A stretch of DNA of 64,000 bases, taken from contig CM069154.1 in the NCBI GenBank assembly GCA_035221665.1, forward strand, positions 12,772,001 through 12,836,000, given 5' to 3'. The position numbers and the translations under genes are program-made. The notes below the pieces were generated by a model, which was not told where the DNA came from, made no database searches, and was given only the letters and a program-made list of their open reading frames with translations. The stretch is from Okamejei kenojei. Lineage: Eukaryota. This document shows, in pieces, positions 1,100-61,018 of the stretch. Every line of letters begins with the position of its first letter. Position 1 is the first letter of the stretch.

Positions 1100-1815
1100 G
1101 ACAGTTAATGGTAGGACCCTCATCAGCATGGATATGCAAAGGGATCTTGTGGCCCAAGTCCATAGCTTCCTGAACGTACACACAAGTAGATAATGGCAAA
1201 TGGCATGTTGCCTTAATCGGTCAGGCCATTAAGTCCAAGAGTCAGGAAGTCGTGTTGCAGCTTTATAAAACTTGTTTGGCCACATTTGGAGTATTGCATA
1301 CAACTTTGGTCTTCCCATAACAGGAAGAATGTGGAAGGGTGCAGCCTACATTAGAGGGTCTGAAGAAGGGTCTCGACCCGAAACGTCGCCTATCTCCTTC
1401 GCTCCTTAGATGCTGCTGCACCCGCTGAGTTTCTCCAGCTTTTTGTGTACCCTACATTAGAGGGTATTGGCTATAAGGAGAGTTTCGACAAACTTGAATT
1501 GTTTTCTCTGGAGCACTGGAGGCTGAGGGGAGACCCAATAGAAGTATGTAAAATTATGAGACACGTAGATCGGGTGGTTGGTCAGGGAAATGTCGCAGAC
1601 TAAAGTGCATAACTTTAAGGTGTGAGAGAGAAGGTTAAAGGAGATGTGTGGGGAAAATCTTTGTCACTTGGTGCCAGTGGTGATGGTGGAAGTAGTGCTT
1701 AAGAGACTTTTAGACAGATGTATTGGAGGGATAAGGATTATGTGCAGGAGGAAGGGACGAGCTTAATTTTGCATTACATTTGGCACAGGCGTCGTGCCCT
1801 TTTCTGTGTTCTATG
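1100..1815 (+). mobile_element. Decayed CR1 LINE 3' fragment, interrupted by a short insertion at 1360-1450
   Basis: Matches the RT C-terminus and 3' UTR of the younger CR1 at 38531-39769 (e.g. ggccacatttggagtattg); boundaries approximate. Confidence 0.75.
1360..1450 (+). mobile_element. Short Penelope-associated element with hammerhead-like core and 15-bp TSD
   Basis: Flanked by cctacattagagggt at 1345-1359 and 1451-1465; begins CTGAAGAAGGGTCTCGACCCGAAACGTC. Confidence 0.8.
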
Positions 1816-3680: not shown

Positions 3681-5896
3681 CTGTATGAAAGATTAGAGAT
3701 TAGAAATGTTTTAAGCGAGAAACGGTTTCCTAAAATGACAATATATTCTCATTTAACAATGCGTTGACTAAAACTAGCTTGGTTATTGATGGAAATACAC
3801 ACAGGGTATAGTACTTGAACAGATCAACTATAGCTTCTTGCGGCTTTCTTCCATTGTAAATTCACCAGAAGTGATGCCATTGAACTGATACCAATATACT
3901 GGTTGTGAATGTAATGAGCTTGCAGAATGGTCACTAAAATATAGTACCATGCATTATAATTCAAAGGTAGTTTGTTTTATGTATATCTATCTATATCTAT
4001 ATCCATAATATCATAATATTCATTAAAAGTCTGATATTGTGTGTCTATGTGTATGTGGTTGTCTTTACATCTTCGCAAAAACACTACCCGGTAACAATTA
4101 CATATTCCGATTGGCATAGCTCCCCTCGAGGCCGGGATCACCTTATCTGAACATTTCATGCTTTATTTCTCGACTCATTACTGATTAAGTCTAAAAAAAT
4201 CAAAAGGCTTTGAAATTAAAACGACCAGCTTCAACTGATGGTGTCACAATGGCTCGAGTAGCAGAGATCAGCCTCACTGAAGATTTCATCCTATATTTGA
4301 CTTTATTCGCGATTAAAGCTTTAATCTACCTACTCTGATATTAACTAATGTGGTGAATTCTATGAAGTTCCTTTTCAAAAGGCATCTAAATCACGTACAG
4401 GGTATATTACATTTTTAGTTCCAAATAATTTCATGAATATTGTGCCCATTATGGTTTTACCCAAACTCATTTGCAGTGAATTGGATTTTTGGGACTACGT
4501 AATTTATCCCCAATTAATCCTGTTTTGAAGATTTTTTAAACTGAAGAAACTAAAATTCAGTTAGCTATTGCATTCTTAAGCAAGCAAAATAAAGGGTATG
4601 CAACAGTCATGATCAGCATACCAGATTATAAATAAGTGTGAAGCAAAATTTACTCTTCCCTATTACTGAAGAATAACTGCAATAAAGCAAAAATTATTTT
4701 CTTCAGTAATATTACAGGACTTACGGACCTGTAAACAGATATAAAATTGTTAACATTGCACATGTAATTTGCAACTTAAGACACTACCATTTCTACATGT
4801 ATTAATATATCCTGTTGCAAAACGTCAGTGAGAATACCCATTGGGAACATACTAGTTGCCTGTAGTAATTACACCTGTACACAACATAGCCAAGGTTCAA
4901 AATTATCATGCAACATTGGATTTTAAAAAAGGTAAATAACTCTGATGTCTCAACTGTGGCCACTTGGTGGCTCTGCACCGGCTTCTCAATTTAAAAGGAG
5001 CAGCTTATACCCAAGTATCATGGCAACATGATACCCCTTTGTGGGGAAATTTAAGTGAAAGGGATAATAGTTAATCACTTAAAAAAGGTATGCAGTGAAA
5101 TAATCAAAAGAGCCTCCTGCCATGCAATTATCAGTGTCCCCCATCATACAATCATGGGTGGGAAGTGAGAATTAAGGACAGAAAGAAACAAACACTCACT
5201 GACAGAAACACTGGAAACTGCAAAAAAAACATAAATCTGCCTGATTCTGCAAACCCTTTCTACCAACACAACTGAAATATGATGGAATACATTTAGCTCC
5301 AACAAATGCCGAATGCCATCTAAGAGAAAATACAATATCTAAACACTTGAATGACCTACTCAAACTCAGTGTGGACGTGTTCACCTCACTGACAGCAATT
5401 GCTCAGTGCTGGTAAAGTACAACTACACTGACAATTAGGGATCATCAGAAAATGAAAGGAAAATGTATCCGAGATCTTGTAAAAATAGTGAAAAAGATCA
5501 ACTTCTCACTGGTGCATTCATCATATTTTGTACTTGAGTTCCTGGTATCACACAAACATCCCACAGTACTCCAACCATCCTCAAACCTTATACTCCTTTT
5601 GGTCTCAAATCCTCACATGCAAATTCTTAGGTAGGATAATTAATTTCTTGAACAAAATAATTTCAGAAGGAAGAATTATTTTTTGTGGTTAGTATAACTT
5701 GCAGCAGAGAAATTCTAACTTTCTCTTGTACCCCAGAGTGAAGGCACCTTTAATTCGTCACAAGATCTAATAACAGAGCATTTTTTAAGACTCGCATTAC
5801 ATTTTGTATAGTTGTCATTAAAAATATGCTTAACAGCTGACATTTAACCCAAGTAACAAATGTAAAATTGAACTGGTAAATCCAAGCTTCACGTAC

Positions 5897-9128: not shown

Positions 9129-9272
9129 TGTTTAGGAAAGAACTGCAGATGCAGGTATACACCCAAGATATAAACAACATGCTGGAGTAACTCAGTGGGA
9201 CAGGCAGCATCTCTGGAGAGAAGGAATGAGTGATGTTTCTGGTCAAGACCCTTCTTCAAACGCTGTTCAAAC
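9129..9272 (-). mobile_element. Longer variant of the Penelope-associated short element
   Basis: gaactgcagatgc...gctggagtaactcag...gacccttcttcaaa, flanked by ttgaacattgaa at 9117-9128 and 9273-9284. Confidence 0.7.
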
Positions 9273-22531: not shown

Positions 22532-22629
22532 GGGTTACACAAAATGCTGGAGAAACTCAGCGGGTGCAGCAGCATCTAAGGAGCGAAGGAGATAGGCGAC
22601 GTTTCGGGTCGAGACCCTTCTTCAGACAC
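22532..22629 (-). mobile_element. Short Penelope-associated element with hammerhead-like core and 12-bp TSD
   Basis: Flanked by catctggtcaga at 22520-22531 and 22630-22641; near-identical to 1360-1450. Confidence 0.8.
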
Positions 22630-28805: not shown

Positions 28806-29210
28806 GTGTAGGAAGGAACTGCAGATGCTAGTTTAAACCGAAGATAGACAAAAAATGCTGGAGTAACTAAGCAGGACAGGCAGCATCTCTGGAGAGAAGG
28901 AATGGGCGATGTTTCGGGTCGAGACCCTTCTTCAGACAGAGTCAGGGAAAAAGGAGACAAGAGATATAGATGGGGATGTAGAGATATATATAACAAATGA
29001 ATGAAAGATATGCAAAAAGAAATAAATAATGGAAATAGGCCATTGTTAGCAGTTTGCTAGGTGAGAGACCTCCTTCCTCAACTCTGTCCAGGGACCCCAG
29101 CAGTCCTTTCAGGTTAGGCAGAGATTCACTTGTACCTCTAACCTCATGTACTATATCAGTTGTTCAAGATGGACTCGTACATCGGCGAAGCTAAACATAG
29201 ACCGGGCAAT
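28806..29210. mobile_element. Penelope-like remnant: hammerhead-bearing terminal repeat (-) joined to a GIY-YIG fragment (+)
   Basis: 28806-28940 is the short element on the minus strand; 29085-29210 reads VQGPQQSFQVRQRFTCTSNLMYYISCSR..YIGE. Confidence 0.7.
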
Positions 29211-44846: not shown

Positions 44847-45984
44847 TTTATAGCTGGAGTGCGAAAGTAAAGCATCATAGAACAAATCTATGAAAACCCA
44901 GTTGCATTTTGTAAACAACATCCATATGAAAAGGACATTCCATATGAAAAGGACATTAAATTCACTACATAAATATTAATTTTCAGTATGTGCCATAATA
45001 TATGGGCATTGAAGACAACCCTTACAAAAATGGCTTAGGCCTCAATTTAGCAAGCAGACTAATGCAAACTAGGAAAATTCAGGCTTCAATCTTTAGTCCA
45101 CTGGCGATCTCAGCAGAAGTGGTAATAAGAACATTACTGTTCATGGCAAGGTCATTTAAAAATCCTTTTAATGCTCACACCCACCCGGGCCAAGCTCAGC
45201 TGAATTTCATCCAAGCTTGAGGTTTGCAAAGGACAAATGTGTGGCACACTGCAGTTAGAACAGGAGTGAAGACTGGGGTGGGGGGGGGGGGGGGGGGGGG
45301 GGGAAGGGAAATGAGAGGGGAAGAATGCCAAGCATACATGGAAAACTATTCCAAACACTTCTGACACTCAATATCCTTGTTTAAAATGACGAATGCCGTC
45401 ATTTGTACCAGTCACCATGAATGCAATTTTGCTATTCAGTGTTCATAGCACCATAAATCCCAATTGGCGAGGGATACAAATCAATTATGATCATTCTAAA
45501 ATAAAATTTAGTTACAGACAGAACCATACCCAATGCAACTCTGCTGAAAGGATATCATACTAGTCAACCTACCTTGGATCTTAGTTAATCATGCTTTCAA
45601 CCAAGTTTTAATCCTCATTTTCAAATCCCTTCACAGAACCTTTTTTCCCTGTTGCCAGCCGGGCAACCTCGGCAGCTTTTTAGGCTGCCAAATGACAGTT
45701 TAGGCGGTCATTTAAGACGGCTTGCATGACGCGTGCAATAATGTGCTCGGACGAAGTGCGTAGTTACCAGTCGGAATTATGGTCAATGCATTCACATATT
45801 ATTTCTGCTTCAAATAAAGTCACAAACTAAACATATTCACCAATCAAGACATGATATATACCACAATGACATGCAGCAAAATTACAATACAGTATTTCAT
45901 CTCTTTTTACACATTGCAATGAATGCAATTTCTATTATCTTTCCACTTCCAAACAAAAATATGGTTATTCAACGTATGATCAAC

Positions 45985-46432
45985 CTCGGTGAGACCAAGC
46001 GCAGGCTTGGCAATCGCTTCGCATAACACCTCCACTCATGTCGCAATAACCAACCTGATCCCCCGGTGGCTCAGCACTTCAACTCCCCCTCCCATTCAGA
46101 ATCCGACCTTTCTGTCCTGGGCCTGCTCCATGGACGGAGTAAGGCCCACCGCAAATTGGAGGAACAGCACCTCATATTTTGCTTGGGTAGTTTACACCCC
46201 AGCGGTATGAACATTGGCTTCTCCAATTTCAGGTAGTCCTTGCTTTCTCCCTCCTTCCCCTCCCATTCCCAGCTCTCCCACAGCCTACTGTCTCCGCCTC
46301 TTCATTTCTTTTTCCAGCCCCTCACCCCTCCCGACATCAGTCTGAAGAAGGGCCTCGACCCAAAATGTCGCCCATTTCCTTCGCTCCATAGATGCTGCCT
46401 CACCTGCTGAGTGTCTCCAGCATTTTTGTCCA
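45985..46432 (+). mobile_element. Penelope-like element 3' end: GIY-YIG C-terminus plus terminal repeat with hammerhead-like motif
   Basis: GETKRRLGNRFA..H..PVAQHFNSPSHSESDLSVLGLLH..RKLEEQHLIFCLGSLHPSGMNIGFSNFR*, then catcagtCTGAAGAAGGGCCTCGACCCAAAATGTC. Confidence 0.8.
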
Positions 46433-46917
46433 CCCATTCACTTAAACTATTCCTGTTACACCATTTCAATTGTTCAACAGTGCTTTTGAAATTGTGTAAC
46501 AGGAATAGTTTAAGTGAATGAAAGAGTGCTTTACAAACAGTACAGAGTACATTACTTGAGCTGAGAGAGGACACTGCATATCATTCTTGCTCCCACCAAC
46601 AACCATTCAAGTGTTTTAAGATACAAGATCATAGATGTCTAGGGAAAATGTGCTGACAAAGTGGAACATACAGGCTGCACAGAAAACATTAAAGCCTGGT
46701 CTTTAAAATAATAAATAAATGTTAATGTAATAATTCACTTGAAATGGCTTGGAATACAATAAAAGGCAAGCTGTTAAAGCAGCAACAAGCAACTCTGACT
46801 GGATCATCGGTGCTTCAGATGGACTGATCCATCTTCAGGGATTGCAGCTGCTGCAGGTTTGAATAGACTCAATAACACTAAGCAAATTGTGAAATGCAGA
46901 TTACAGACACTGGTTCC

Positions 46918-47091: not shown

Positions 47092-47310
47092 AGACACAAA
47101 ATATTAAAGTAACTCAGCAGATCAGGCGACATCTTCTGTGAAGATGGATGGGTGACGTATCAGATCGGGACCCTTCTTCTGGGAAGAAGGTTCTTAACCT
47201 AAAATATCACCAACTTACGTTCTCCACAGATGCTGCCTGACCTGCTGAGTTACTCCAGCATTGTCTCTATTTAAAAAAAATATATAAACCAGCATCTGCA
47301 CTTCCTTATA
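47092..47310. repeat. Head-to-head inverted pair of the Penelope-associated short element
   Basis: Centre ccttcttc-tgg-gaagaagg (47172-47190); arms gtaactcagcagatcaggc / gcctgacctgctgagttac. Confidence 0.7.
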
Positions 47311-49957: not shown

Positions 49958-52456
49958 AATAGCCCATGGGCCTCCCCGCTGCACATGGTGCCAAAGGTGT
50001 CCAGCGGTTGGAGGCCGTGCAGGGACTAACACCACCTTAACAAGGCCACAACCGCTGACCCTATTCCCCACATACCGGACTTCACAGCACATCTGGCCGG
50101 GGCTAGGTTCTTCTCTAAGATCGACCTAGTCCGAGGATATCACCAGATCCCCGTGTGACAGGAGGTTGTCCCCAAGACAGCAATTATCACCCCGTTCGGG
50201 TTGTTCGAGTTCCTGTGAATGCCCTTCGGCCTCAAGAATGCGGCGCAGGCCTTTCAGCGCCTGATGGACACCATGGTACGCGGGCTCGACTTCCTGTTCG
50301 TCTACTTGGACGACATCCTCGTGGCAAGTCGCTCGTGTGAGGAACACTGCGCCCACCTGCGTCTACTCTTCCAGCGCTTCAGTGACCATGGCCTCGTAAT
50401 TAACCCTGGCAGGTGCCAATTGGGCACAGAGCAGTGCCTCTGCTGGACAGGTACGTGGCCTCCGGGTGTTCGTAAGGATGGTCACATTTTACCACTGGTT
50501 CGTTCCGGCGGCTGCCGAACTTTAACAGCCGCTTTTTCAGTTGCTGATGGGCAAGCAGCGGCAGATAGTGGGATGCTGTCGCTATGGCGGCGTTTGAAAG
50601 GGCAAAGGAGGCCCTGGCTCGGGGCGACTATGCTCGTGCATCCGACGGCCTACGCCCCCATAGCCTTTACCATGGATGCCTCGGACTCTGCGGTTGGCGC
50701 CGTTTTGAAATAGTCCATTAACAGCCTTTGGTGGCCTTTCGCCTTCTTTAGCCGGCACCTGAGGGATGTGGAGCAGCGCTTTCGACCGGGGTTGTTCGCC
50801 TTACACCTCGCAGTGCTGCACTTCCGGTACTTCCTCGAGGGCCGTTCTTTCGTAGCCTTCACGGACCATTAGCCACTCACATTTGCATTTGCGAAGGTTT
50901 CGGATCCTTGGTCCGCCCGTCAGCACCGCCGGCTATTACGACGTATACAATGGACGTCCAGCACATAGCTGGGAAATGCAACCTCGTGGCGGATGCGGTG
51001 TCCCGTCCGGCAATTGCAGCCGTGCTTAACCCGGCCTCGGCCCAGCTGGCGGACGATGAGATGCCGGCATACCGCACCGCAGTCTCTGGCCTGGTGCTTG
51101 AGGACGTGCCGTTGGGTTCCATCCTCTGTGACGTATCCACGGGTCAGCCGAAGCCTATCGTTCTGGCGGCCTGGCGCCATCGCGTGTTTGAGGTGATCCA
51201 TGGGCTGGCCCACCCATCCGGGCCACGGTCACTCTGGTGGCCGCAAGGTTTATGTGGCACAGACTTCGGAGGCAGGTTGCTCGCTGGGCCCGGCCGTGCA
51301 TCCCGTGCCAGACATCAAAGGTGCATTGACACGTCCGGGCGCCCGTTCAAGAATTTGCAGTGCCACGCCGGTGGTTCGATCACATACACGTGGATATCGT
51401 GGGGCCGCTGCCTCAGTCCCAAGGGGTTTCACACCTGCTTACGGTGGTCGACCGTTTCACACAGTGGCCGGAGGCCATCCAGCTCACGGACACTTTGACG
51501 GAGTCGTGTGCTTGTGCCCTGGATTGCCCGCTTTGGGGTTCCTCTGCACATCCAAACGGGGCGCCCGGTTTACATCTGAACTGTGGTCCCGCCTGTTGGG
51601 GACGCAGCTCCACCACACGACAGCGTACTATCCCCAATCAAATGGGTTGGTGGAGCGGTTCCACTGCTGTCTGAAGGCTCGTCTCAAAGGCCCTGGGTGG
51701 ATGGACGAGTTGCCATGGGTCCTGTTGGAGGTTCGGACGGCCCCAAGGAGGATCTGTCAACGTCCTCCGCGGAGTTGGTATATGGTGCTCCGCTCACTGT
51801 CCCCGGGGATTTTGCTGCTGATGGGTCCCAGGAACCCCTATCATCAGTGCTGATCGGCTTGCGGGAGAGGGTCGGCGCCCAATCTGCCATCCCAACATCG
51901 CGCCATGGAGTGGCCCCTTCCCATGAGCCACTGCCACTGATGGGCTGCCGTACATTTTTCTTCGCCGTGACTCCCAGTCTCCTGACTCCTCGCAGCGCCC
52001 GTATGAAGGTCCCTTTCGTGTGCGGCACGGGCCTACTACATTCGATTTGGATATGGGAGGCCGGCGTGAAACAGTGTCTGTGACTCATTTGAAACCAGCC
52101 CACCTGGACCTGAGCGAGCAGCTCCCGGGGCGTGGGATTGTATCTACCCATTCGGGCTGCCTCGTGCAACGTCCTGTGCGGTTCGGTGCCTCTGGTTGTG
52201 TGGGGGGGGGGGGGGTAGGTCATGTGGCGGCACCTGATAGCATCCCAAGGCCACGACGAACCATCGGCTGTAGAGGGCGGCGTCTTGGTGGGGAGGCGCA
52301 GGTCACGGGGTCGGTATCCAAGTTGTTATTTAAGGCCGGGCAATGCCCATGTCAGCTGAGGTGTAGGGGGCTGTATGCAGAAGAATAAACACGCCTAGAG
52401 CACACAACTTGTGTCCGACTAGTCTTTTGGCTGGACTCCTACCAGTCCCCGCCACA
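49958..52456 (+). mobile_element. Decayed Gypsy/Ty3 LTR retrotransposon (RT-RNase H-integrase, polypurine tract, 3' LTR)
   Basis: SPWASPLHMVPK, MPFGLKNAAQAFQRLMD, VYLDDILVAS, DASDSAVGAVL, HIHVDIVGPLP, HHTTAYYPQSNGLVERFH; G-rich polypurine tract before the LTR; stops and frameshifts. Confidence 0.93.
52223..52456 (+). repeat. 3' LTR (234 bp)
   Basis: Termini TGTGGCGG...CCGCCACA; TATTTAA and AATAAA inside. Confidence 0.88.
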
Positions 52457-54830: not shown

Positions 54831-54924
54831 GGTAGACAAAATTGCTGGAGAAACTCAGCGGGTGCGGCAGCATCTATGGAGCGAAGGAAATAGGCAACGT
54901 TTTGGGCCGAAACCTTTCTTCAGA
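54831..54924 (-). mobile_element. Further copy of the ~90-bp Penelope-associated element
   Basis: gctggagaaactcagcgggtgcggcagcatctatggagcgaaggaaataggcaacgttttgggccgaaacctttcttcaga. Confidence 0.75.
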
Positions 54925-55580
54925 TCCTCAGCTAGTGCAAGCTGGCTGATGAAAATCTTCACCAATTACAAGGTTTGCGTCCATTTCATTGAAGGTTGTT
55001 ACACTTCTTAAAAAGAACGGTTGCACTTTAAACAGCTTTAAGCATTAAAATACATTTCAACATCCACATGAAAGAACTGGAATGACCTCCCATCTAATGC
55101 ACTTTACCTGGTAACTGTGGTGTGGGTCAGAAAGATAGAGCCCTAAAGTTTCTACCTAATCCAATCTCAAATTATCTCTGTATACTTTATGTGCATTACT
55201 TTAGAGTCAAACCTTTCAAGCATTTCTGGTCTACCATCAAGCTCCCTTTATAAACTAATTGTTGTTCCAGCCTGAATTGTTGGGATGCGTTCTATGAAAA
55301 AGACTTAATTCCAAATCTACAAGCCCCAATGAAATCATGGATAATTTGTGACTATTCTGTCTGCTCACCTTTGCCCCATCAAAGCCGCAATTTTTATCTA
55401 AATGAGCAGTTATTAAAGGAATGAAAAAATAGCAAGATTGAATGGTTCCAGATTAAAGATAGGTTTCTCTATAATGTAAATTAATTTAACAATATTTTTT
55501 TCCAAGTGATAAAAGCATTTCAATAAACACCTCAGGTAAAATTTGTTTACTCTCAGATAATATCCAAGTGAATCACATAC

Positions 55581-59551: not shown

Positions 59552-59670
59552 ATCAGTTTGAAGAAAGGTCCCAATCCAAAACACCACCTGTGCATTTCAC
59601 TCTACAGATGTCTGACCTGCGGAGTTCCTCCAGCACTATTTCTGCTCAACATCCAGCATCAGGAGTCTCT
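59552..59670 (+). repeat. Old copy of the Penelope-associated terminal repeat
   Basis: catcagtttgaagaaaggtcccaatccaaaacaccacc...gacctgcggagttcctccagcac. Confidence 0.55.
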
Positions 59671-60104
59671 TGTGTCACCATTAATCACAGCAATAGCTTC
59701 ATAATAGTTTATCATTCATGGAATAGTATTTTAAAAGTGCGATGTACAAATAGCAATTACCAACACAAACTAATAATAAAACAAAACGTTCAGGCAACCG
59801 AAACAGTAGCCAGTGTAAAGAATAAAAGCATGCTATAGACAAACTGGACTGTGCGTATCTTTCAGTATTAAAGCACCACATACACTTAACACCTATTGAT
59901 TGTTCCAATTGCTTGCAATTCCCTACAGGGTTACATGGTGACAAAATAAAATCACACAGACCACCGGGTAGAGTGTTTGATTTCTCCTCATATAAATTAC
60001 CTTATCTTGCTAGATATGAGAATATAACCCATGCTATGAAGGAATGGAGAAACGTTTTGTTTTTGATCAGTGACTCCACATCAGTGACTCCAAAGAATAA
60101 AACA

Positions 60105-60381: not shown

Positions 60382-60513
60382 TGTGTAAGAAGGAACTGCA
60401 GATGCTTGTTTAAATGAAGATAGACACAAAAAGCTGGAGCAAGGCAGTGGGTCAGGCAGCATCTCTGGAGAAAAGGAATTGGTGACATTTCAGATGGTGA
60501 CCCTTCTTTAGAC
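60382..60513 (-). mobile_element. Longer variant of the Penelope-associated short element
   Basis: tgtaagaaggaactgcagatgc...ggtcaggcagcatctctggaga...gacccttctttagac. Confidence 0.7.
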
Positions 60514-61018
60514 GAGTGGGCAGTTAATGGAGGGCAACTATCATGCTCCAGTCATACAATAAAAAGATAAAACAATTCAAGGATACATAGGAGTAAAATA
60601 CTATAGCGTTATTGTCCTAAAATGAATTCAGCTCCGTGGTAAAACATACAAGCCCAAGTAAAGCAATCTAACACAAAAAAAAAACAAAAGTTAATTGTTC
60701 CACTTTAATACTGTGATGAAACTTTTCCAAAATCTGTTCTCGAATAAAATGTCATCTTGCCCAAAATCTGCCCACTCTATTAACCTACATCCAACATTTT
60801 TCAACTTATAATGAATTATCATGTAGTCTGTCACACAATCTAATCACTAGCATACATCAGATGTGACTTACCCAGCACCAATCCTATGGAATAAAGATAC
60901 TTCTCTTAACGTCTGGGGGTGGGGGGGGCTAAAATTTTCACTGGAGACCCTGTTTTCTGCCAAGCTTTGTGATTTGCCTCTTCCTCCCTAGTTATTTTCT
61001 AAGATGCATAATACTAAT

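Follow-up and report, generated by a model that had tools for sequence, protein, structure and literature searches.

How does a 91-nt insert carrying a hammerhead-ribozyme motif come to lie between perfect target-site duplications (TSDs) in a window of Okamejei kenojei DNA (the whole 64-kb stretch analysed here), and what does the motif do there? The preliminary description saw a young, abundant, non-autonomous family that places potential self-cleavage motifs throughout introns. Our analysis points to another origin. The insert is almost certainly a piece of an autonomous Penelope-like element (PLE), and we consider it likely that it arose when reverse transcription started internally on an uncut, probably capped PLE RNA and ran off its 5' end.

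The insert, its hammerhead motif and its relatives in the window

A comparison of the flanks bore out the insert (window positions 1360-1450, between the two TSD copies) and the duplication as they had been described: the TSD match is perfect over 15 bp and cannot be extended. Because the final GT of the TSD (1358-1359) equals the element's own letters at -2 and -1, the 5' junction displays a 2-nt microhomology, and the element measures 93 nt when counted from the shared GT (1358..1450). Offsets throughout take the C of CUGAAGA, window position 1360, as 0. This leader-only copy, or stub, has the short 3' end, with the optional tail of the family absent. Translations of both flanks agree with the earlier placement inside an old LINE, the flank peptides (1200..1570) being presumably a CR1-type ORF2 C-terminus. 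Two features elsewhere in the window are recorded in passing: positions 1-105 hold the 3' end of a SINE, which we take to be V-SINE/HE1-like, and positions 50001-52000 have 60% GC next to an N block and are possibly a promoter CpG island.

Table 1. Positions of the insert, its host repeat and related copies within the 64-kb window
Feature	Position	Strand	Remarks
Left TSD	1345..1359	+	15 bp, identical to 1451-1465; final 2 nt are shared with the start of the element
Right TSD	1451..1465	+	identical to 1345..1359
Leader-only stub of a 3.95-kb PLE	1358..1450	+	reaches from -2 to about +90, counted from the CUGA box
Minimal type I hammerhead motif	1358..1389	+	from sequence, descriptor scan and features listed in excerpts of PMC4209133
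Old LINE remnant hosting the insertion	1200..1570	+	translations of both flanks
Old stub with tail	9130..9261	-	
Second young stub	22533..22627	-	98% identical, intact core
Older-subfamily copy with tail	28809..28947	-	core present, palindrome lost
Longer 5'-truncated copy, older subfamily	45979..46435	+	endonuclease C-terminus, 3' UTR, hammerhead leader
Two old leader copies, head to head	47094..47309		47094-47181 minus, 47180-47309 plus
Further stub	54831..54925	-	core broken
Old diverged copy	59552..59674	+	
Old stub with tail	60383..60517	-	

The minimal hammerhead core reported at the start of the insert is exact to the letter. It comprises CUGAAGA (1360-1366), an extra A (1367), the stem II hairpin (1368-1379), GAAA (1380-1383), the palindromic ACGU (1383-1386) and the GUC triplet (1385-1387), with the predicted cut after 1387. 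A scan of the window with a core descriptor agrees, returning three sites against none in 300 shuffled windows; the palindrome is present in two of the three, at 1360 (+) and 22625 (-). The assignment to the minimal type I hammerheads of the PLE kind likewise stands on the marks given in the excerpted text of PMC4209133: CUGANGA, GAAA, NUH, an extra base before 10.1, a G10.1-C11.1 pair and palindromic 15.2-16.2 are all found. Helix I departs from that pattern, with 2 bp only (1358-1359 with 1388-1389) instead of 4-5 bp; among 15 aligned copies, it varies between U-G (seven) and U-A (six). A scan against Rfam gave no match to a hammerhead family, either at the gathering score or at E<=10.

The "at least eight" related copies first counted in the window became 10, this one included, in a single-sequence nhmmer search (E<=1e-3), and 12 with a profile. 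The core is broken in most of them, and only two have the full core plus palindrome. The second young stub has its own 12-bp TSD and two extra letters at its 5' junction. In the longer copy, a leader with a broken core (46338-46435) directly follows a GIY-YIG-type endonuclease frame (C-terminus at 45979-46236, one stop), which raised the suspicion of a PLE origin; a Pfam scan of the 69-aa fragment from the window gave no match. An inverted repeat of ~85 nt (46436-46520) lies directly behind this copy.

An autonomous 3.95-kb element with the same leader

Tracing long copies upstream to reverse transcriptase (RT) and endonuclease (EN) frames, followed by a protein search, led to the open reading frame (ORF) of a 3.95-kb unit—consisting of a leader, an ATG at +162, an ORF of 1185 aa and a 234-nt 3' UTR, after which the next leader begins. 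The hammerhead spans 0 to +27 of the leader. The window stub is identical at 93/93 positions to the leader in one unit from the same genome (L150) and to both leaders in another (L151).

Several features place this unit among the EN+ PLEs. Its single ORF has an RT followed by a GIY-YIG endonuclease; in the Pfam scan of the 1185-aa ORF of L151, RVT_1 (669-839, E 4.5e-6) and GIY-YIG (1089-1122, E 0.004) both scored under the curated cut-off. Among 7992 scored proteins, 1043 are relatives at E<=1e-20, carrying the same domains and including a bamboo-shark protein with 70% identity. Hammerhead leaders stand 3.95 kb apart around the ORF at five loci (L149, L150, L151, L156 and L166), the tandem or partial-tandem arrangement of a hammerhead-bearing pLTR. 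An optional tail of 30-40 nt and an inverted, 5'-truncated partner complete the picture: each was found in 35/100 copies of the anchor census described below, the partner within 260 nt. Between YIDD (832) and the EN (1091), a CxxxxCxxC motif at residue 1052 may be a Zn-finger that, judged by sequence, fits the Neptune or Nematis type; the available text of 10.1101/2021.04.23.441226 gives such a motif in the RT-EN linker as common to both. The protein also contains a Pro-rich low-complexity region (~300 aa ahead of the RT; L151:2658-6215, minus) and, at 1185 aa, is longer than most relatives, nearly all of which have 650-1130 aa among those listed.

Counted as exact-pattern matches in the same genome, a 34-mer from the 3' half of the insert, within the leader, occurs 45,915 times and a 48-mer of the insert 19,392 times, with no match for the reversed controls of either; a 34-mer reaching to -27 matches 16,123 times and one behind the tail 488 times. 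These counts confirm the abundance claimed at the outset. The views that the insert is young and that Penelope machinery mobilised it are supported as well. The absence of a tRNA head, also noted earlier, holds too: none was seen, and the insert is PLE leader throughout.

A sharp 5' edge, an extra G and the route by which stubs may be made

To describe where copies begin, we took as a census the first 100 matches of the leader-34-mer anchor on one contig (C1), picked blind to their 5' ends. Twenty-seven start in the ORF, 2 in the 3' UTR, 51 at -7 to +2, 16 at +3 to +24, 3 at +29 to +31 and 1 at +44; the 2 in the 3' UTR are the only starts in the 228 nt upstream of the pile-up. The distribution is thus bimodal, with a long class of scattered truncations and a short class piled at -7 to +2. 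Among 30 post-tail loci, eight run >1.4 kb into the ORF from its 5' side, and four of these eight start at -3 to +15, so that the 5' edge is common to stubs and to some full-length copies. The remaining four retain at least 160 nt of upstream pLTR, as do 6/6 full-length units inspected, which implies that some transcripts begin further upstream or are tandem, or that the template is at times switched by a jump. Four loci (L274, L275, L278 and L280) hold 185-570 nt of the unit followed by a second leader, as by a template jump, with an extra G at the jump in two of them. Around the edge itself, CAGT is kept across subfamilies with differing upstream sequence, and CCAGTCT at -5 to +1 fits what we take to be the initiator consensus.

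An untemplated G accompanies this edge. A TSD pinned down the junction in 89 of 401 distinct young copies; four of these 89, starting beyond +24, were left out of the comparison. Extra letters ending in G were found at 13/43 junctions in the class at -7 to -2, a class largely retrieved by start-specific patterns, vs 1/42 elsewhere (p 7e-4); the comparison junctions divide into 1/29 at long truncations and 0/13 at -1 to +24. Omitting loci selected for a purine at -5 left 11/39 vs 1/42 (p 1e-3). Hand counts give further figures: of the first 100 purine matches listed, 70 have G in front of CAGT; before GTCT, G occurs 47 times vs 24 for C among the matches listed, a ratio to which A-to-G changes may contribute; and before AGT the raw letters per 100, again among the matches listed, are 36 G, 42 A and 22 T, where 8 of the first 11 A stem from two recurrent composites. 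Full-length L1 insertions are described in the accessible part of PMC11702581 as carrying an extra G copied from the cap. By analogy of sequence, the extra G here likely marks a capped RNA start at -4 to -2; it might equally stem from a C that the RT appends on reaching the end of a template, whether or not that end has a cap. RNA contigs from 4/24 runs cover the element, contigs of a kind that reveal neither starts, strand nor transcription.

Taken together, these features suggest the following route. Transcription would start at the CAGU that immediately precedes the CUGA box, and each transcript would hold the leader twice. An RT start in the 3' leader would produce the long truncated insertions; a start inside the 5' leader of an uncut, probably capped RNA would run off the 5' end and yield a stub of ~90 nt, the extra G being a copy of the cap. 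The hammerhead would then be a passenger in stubs—kept in the masters, left uncut in the RNA that is copied and predicted not to fold alone. The sections of PMC11167929 on the anole PLE describe a pair of internal RT start sites by which the tail is delimited, unprocessed RNA as the template, and a need for RNA extending beyond the RT start site. Since the sequence downstream of the RT start is missing from stubs, they would likely be dead ends. A start ~120 nt ahead of the hammerhead, as the excerpts of PMC2377424 and PMC4209133 together indicate for D. virilis Penelope, means that the geometry proposed here would differ.

The idea that the copies stand ready to cleave themselves found no support. 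With a helix I of 2 bp, structure prediction puts the hammerhead fold of the monomer 5-8 kcal/mol above the predicted minimum, and the pairing probability of stem II is near 0 in the predicted ensemble. Stub and full leader fold no better than shuffled sequences (z 0.38 and -0.11). When the tail is present, base-pairing is predicted between it and two stretches, the CUGAAGA region and an 8-bp partner that does not vary. This leader-tail helix (L150:5059-5120) is invariant across subfamily majorities and has a predicted probability of about 0.94; its tail strand is flanked by the two insertion 3' ends, and covariation was not seen in it. The hammerhead of a stub is probably idle. Its stems are nearly invariant, with a covariation score of 0.060 vs 0.066 in shuffles, 380/500 of which scored as high.

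Conservation is informative at one level only. In a comparison of five subfamily majorities, from copies filtered for likeness in both parts, three positions vary in the first 32 nt vs 34 in the next 96 (p 0.006), from which we infer that the masters keep the hammerhead; promoter or protein-binding constraints could equally keep these 32 nt invariant. Single copies have core substitutions at 6.4% vs 5.6% elsewhere, CpG excluded. Conservation of the core is therefore absent at the level of copies, which argues against selection after insertion and leaves the subfamily majorities as the informative set.

Traces of cleavage were sought among the starts. Exact-match starts at the cut site (+28) number 275 in the genome vs 266 at a control position (+25); among 30 loci each, true truncations were 18 at +28 vs 13 at +25, and a small class of cleavage-derived copies may exist. 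Sequence upstream of the cut site is retained in 96/100 census copies, and this, with no excess at +28, indicates that copies are made from uncut RNA. Such a reading agrees with the anole element, whose hammerhead, according to the passages available from PMC11167929, cuts only with protein, and whose hammerhead (HHR) mutants leave insertion unaffected.

A different role for the ribozyme is conceivable, and we hold it tentatively. The cap would sit 2-4 bases upstream of the core, and young insertions would for the most part be complete leader copies from cap to internal start, an integrating PLE counterpart of strong-stop DNA; the hammerhead near the cap, restrained by competing folds, would act as a decapping switch, triggered by protein or dimerisation, that withdraws cut RNAs from translation and copying. 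This would explain a motif kept in masters yet never found at insertion ends.

Other explanations of the edge leave the cap aside. Within the same element, the 5' pile-up might come from RNA processing or a stop and not from a transcription start, through a 5'-3' exonuclease halted by a protein-bound hammerhead, an AG splice acceptor or RT fall-off past structure. We find this unlikely. The sequence upstream is indeed pyrimidine-rich and ends in CAG at -4 to -2, and an intron of the D. virilis element ends at helix I in the excerpted account of PMC4209133; yet 22/100 copies start at -7 to -3 and so keep the C, A and G, which use of a splice acceptor would take away, stubs have no upstream exon in common, and GT..AG ends occur in none of the 15 RNA-contig joints listed out of 72. 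The scatter of starts over -7 to +18 and the upstream pLTR in several full-length copies would suit processing or a stop; against these, structure would be expected to halt an RT before it and not after, and the extra G fits a cap. As a separate observation, an acceptor-like AG just ahead of the core and a donor-like GT at the ATG (L150 about 5007-5011 and 5168-5178) bound a putative exon of ~165 nt containing the hammerhead, which finds support in none of the RNA-contig joints among the matches listed.

The non-autonomous family of the preliminary description—SINE- or retrozyme-like, its short copies themselves transcribed and then copied by PLE proteins—is very unlikely, and we regard it as largely refuted. 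Short copies make up about two thirds of the young ones, the promoter of a PLE can lie internally (PMC2377424, in the part available), and the text seen of 10.64898/2026.07.22.740005 proposes non-LTR retrozymes as pLTR derivatives. Moreover, stubs with the same flanks recur in two groups (L170/L173/L175 and L183/L185/L189/L197/L198, around 1500), which, from their sequence, may be composite elements of secondary origin or stubs that other repeats have carried along. Against such a family, the insert has no sequence of its own, 29/100 census copies continue upstream into the 3' UTR or ORF, and the variant spectrum is shared: four variable features have the same frequency in 259 short and 127 long young copies (p 0.15-0.72), so that no lineage distinct from the autonomous partner emerges, as it would for a SINE-like family. 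Starts are heterogeneous, and short and long classes share both 3' ends, near +90 or, with a tail of ~34 nt, near +125; stubs also want the sequence downstream of the RT start that the anole PLE needed in the excerpts of PMC11167929.

That stubs derive from hammerhead-cleaved or circular RNA, like retrozymes, is highly improbable. In its favour, the motif is conserved across subfamily majorities, 3/100 copies start at +29 to +31 and head-to-tail leader repeats exist; against it stand the sequence retained upstream of the cut, the near-equal counts at cut site and control, tandem joints at varied places and not at the cut site, and the anole HHR mutants without effect on insertion (PMC11167929, as excerpted).

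Significance and comparison with known systems

The literature already describes PLEs together with their minimal hammerheads, their tails, their inverted partners and motifs dispersed singly, and the insert itself is ordinary. Among the papers listed by our literature searches, there was no account of leader-only PLE copies with a sharp edge and a cap-like G; a search with the 11-letter motif gave unrelated primers in the 20 matches listed of 23. On a large natural scale, the copies document the copying of a vertebrate PLE: the internal starts are fixed, the edge at the hammerhead is sharp, an extra G resembles a cap, and cleaved templates have left no trace. If the edge is a transcription start, what PLE hammerheads do becomes directly testable, and cutting would remove the cap plus about 30 nt instead of releasing unit-length RNA. 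Annotators of such genomes should take warning, since apparent "ribozyme SINEs", in the tens of thousands, are stubs of a single autonomous family.

Compared with known systems, the element resembles the EN+ PLEs of Neptune or Nematis type, as characterised in the excerpts of 10.1101/2021.04.23.441226 and PMC3846280, in its RT plus C-terminal GIY-YIG ORF, its linker Cys motif, its hammerhead pLTR with an optional 30-40-nt tail and partial tandems, its head-to-head inverted copies and heavy 5' truncation, and its TSD of variable length (median here 13 bp). It differs from them in its very many leader-only copies, with their sharp 5' edge and extra G, and in the long Pro-rich N-terminus of its 1185-aa protein. 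The motif shares with the minimal hammerheads of metazoan PLEs (Cervera and De la Pena 2014, PMC4209133, in the text available) the core boxes, the extra nucleotide between 9 and 10.1, the G10.1-C11.1 pair, the palindromic 15.2-16.2 and an occurrence chiefly as lone dispersed motifs, thought there to be truncated PLEs; shark or skate terms are absent from the one supplement file of that paper that was searched. Its helix I, like that of the D. virilis variant, is 2 bp long, against 4-5 bp in Schistosoma, and its helix II measures 4-5 bp vs 7-8 in Schistosoma (same source).

Non-LTR retrozymes, in the portions seen of PMC7229834 and 10.64898/2026.07.22.740005, likewise have a type I hammerhead and kinship with pLTRs. 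They form tandem units of ~300 bp with mostly canonical hammerheads and circular RNA, unlike the solo, TSD-flanked piece found here, which is identical to an autonomous element and forms no tandem delimited by the cleavage site, with no excess of ends at the cut. A further parallel lies in Poseidon PAc of Anolis (Frangieh et al. 2024; PMC11167929, as excerpted), where insertions likewise end at one of two 3' positions, with a tail between them on the downstream side of the hammerhead, and where uncut RNA is the template; the excerpts treat neither leader-only products nor a capped start. In that element, the ORF begins within the hammerhead and the RT starts at +111 to +118 of the ORF, whereas in the skate both 3' ends lie upstream of the ATG (+162), within a leader that is not translated.
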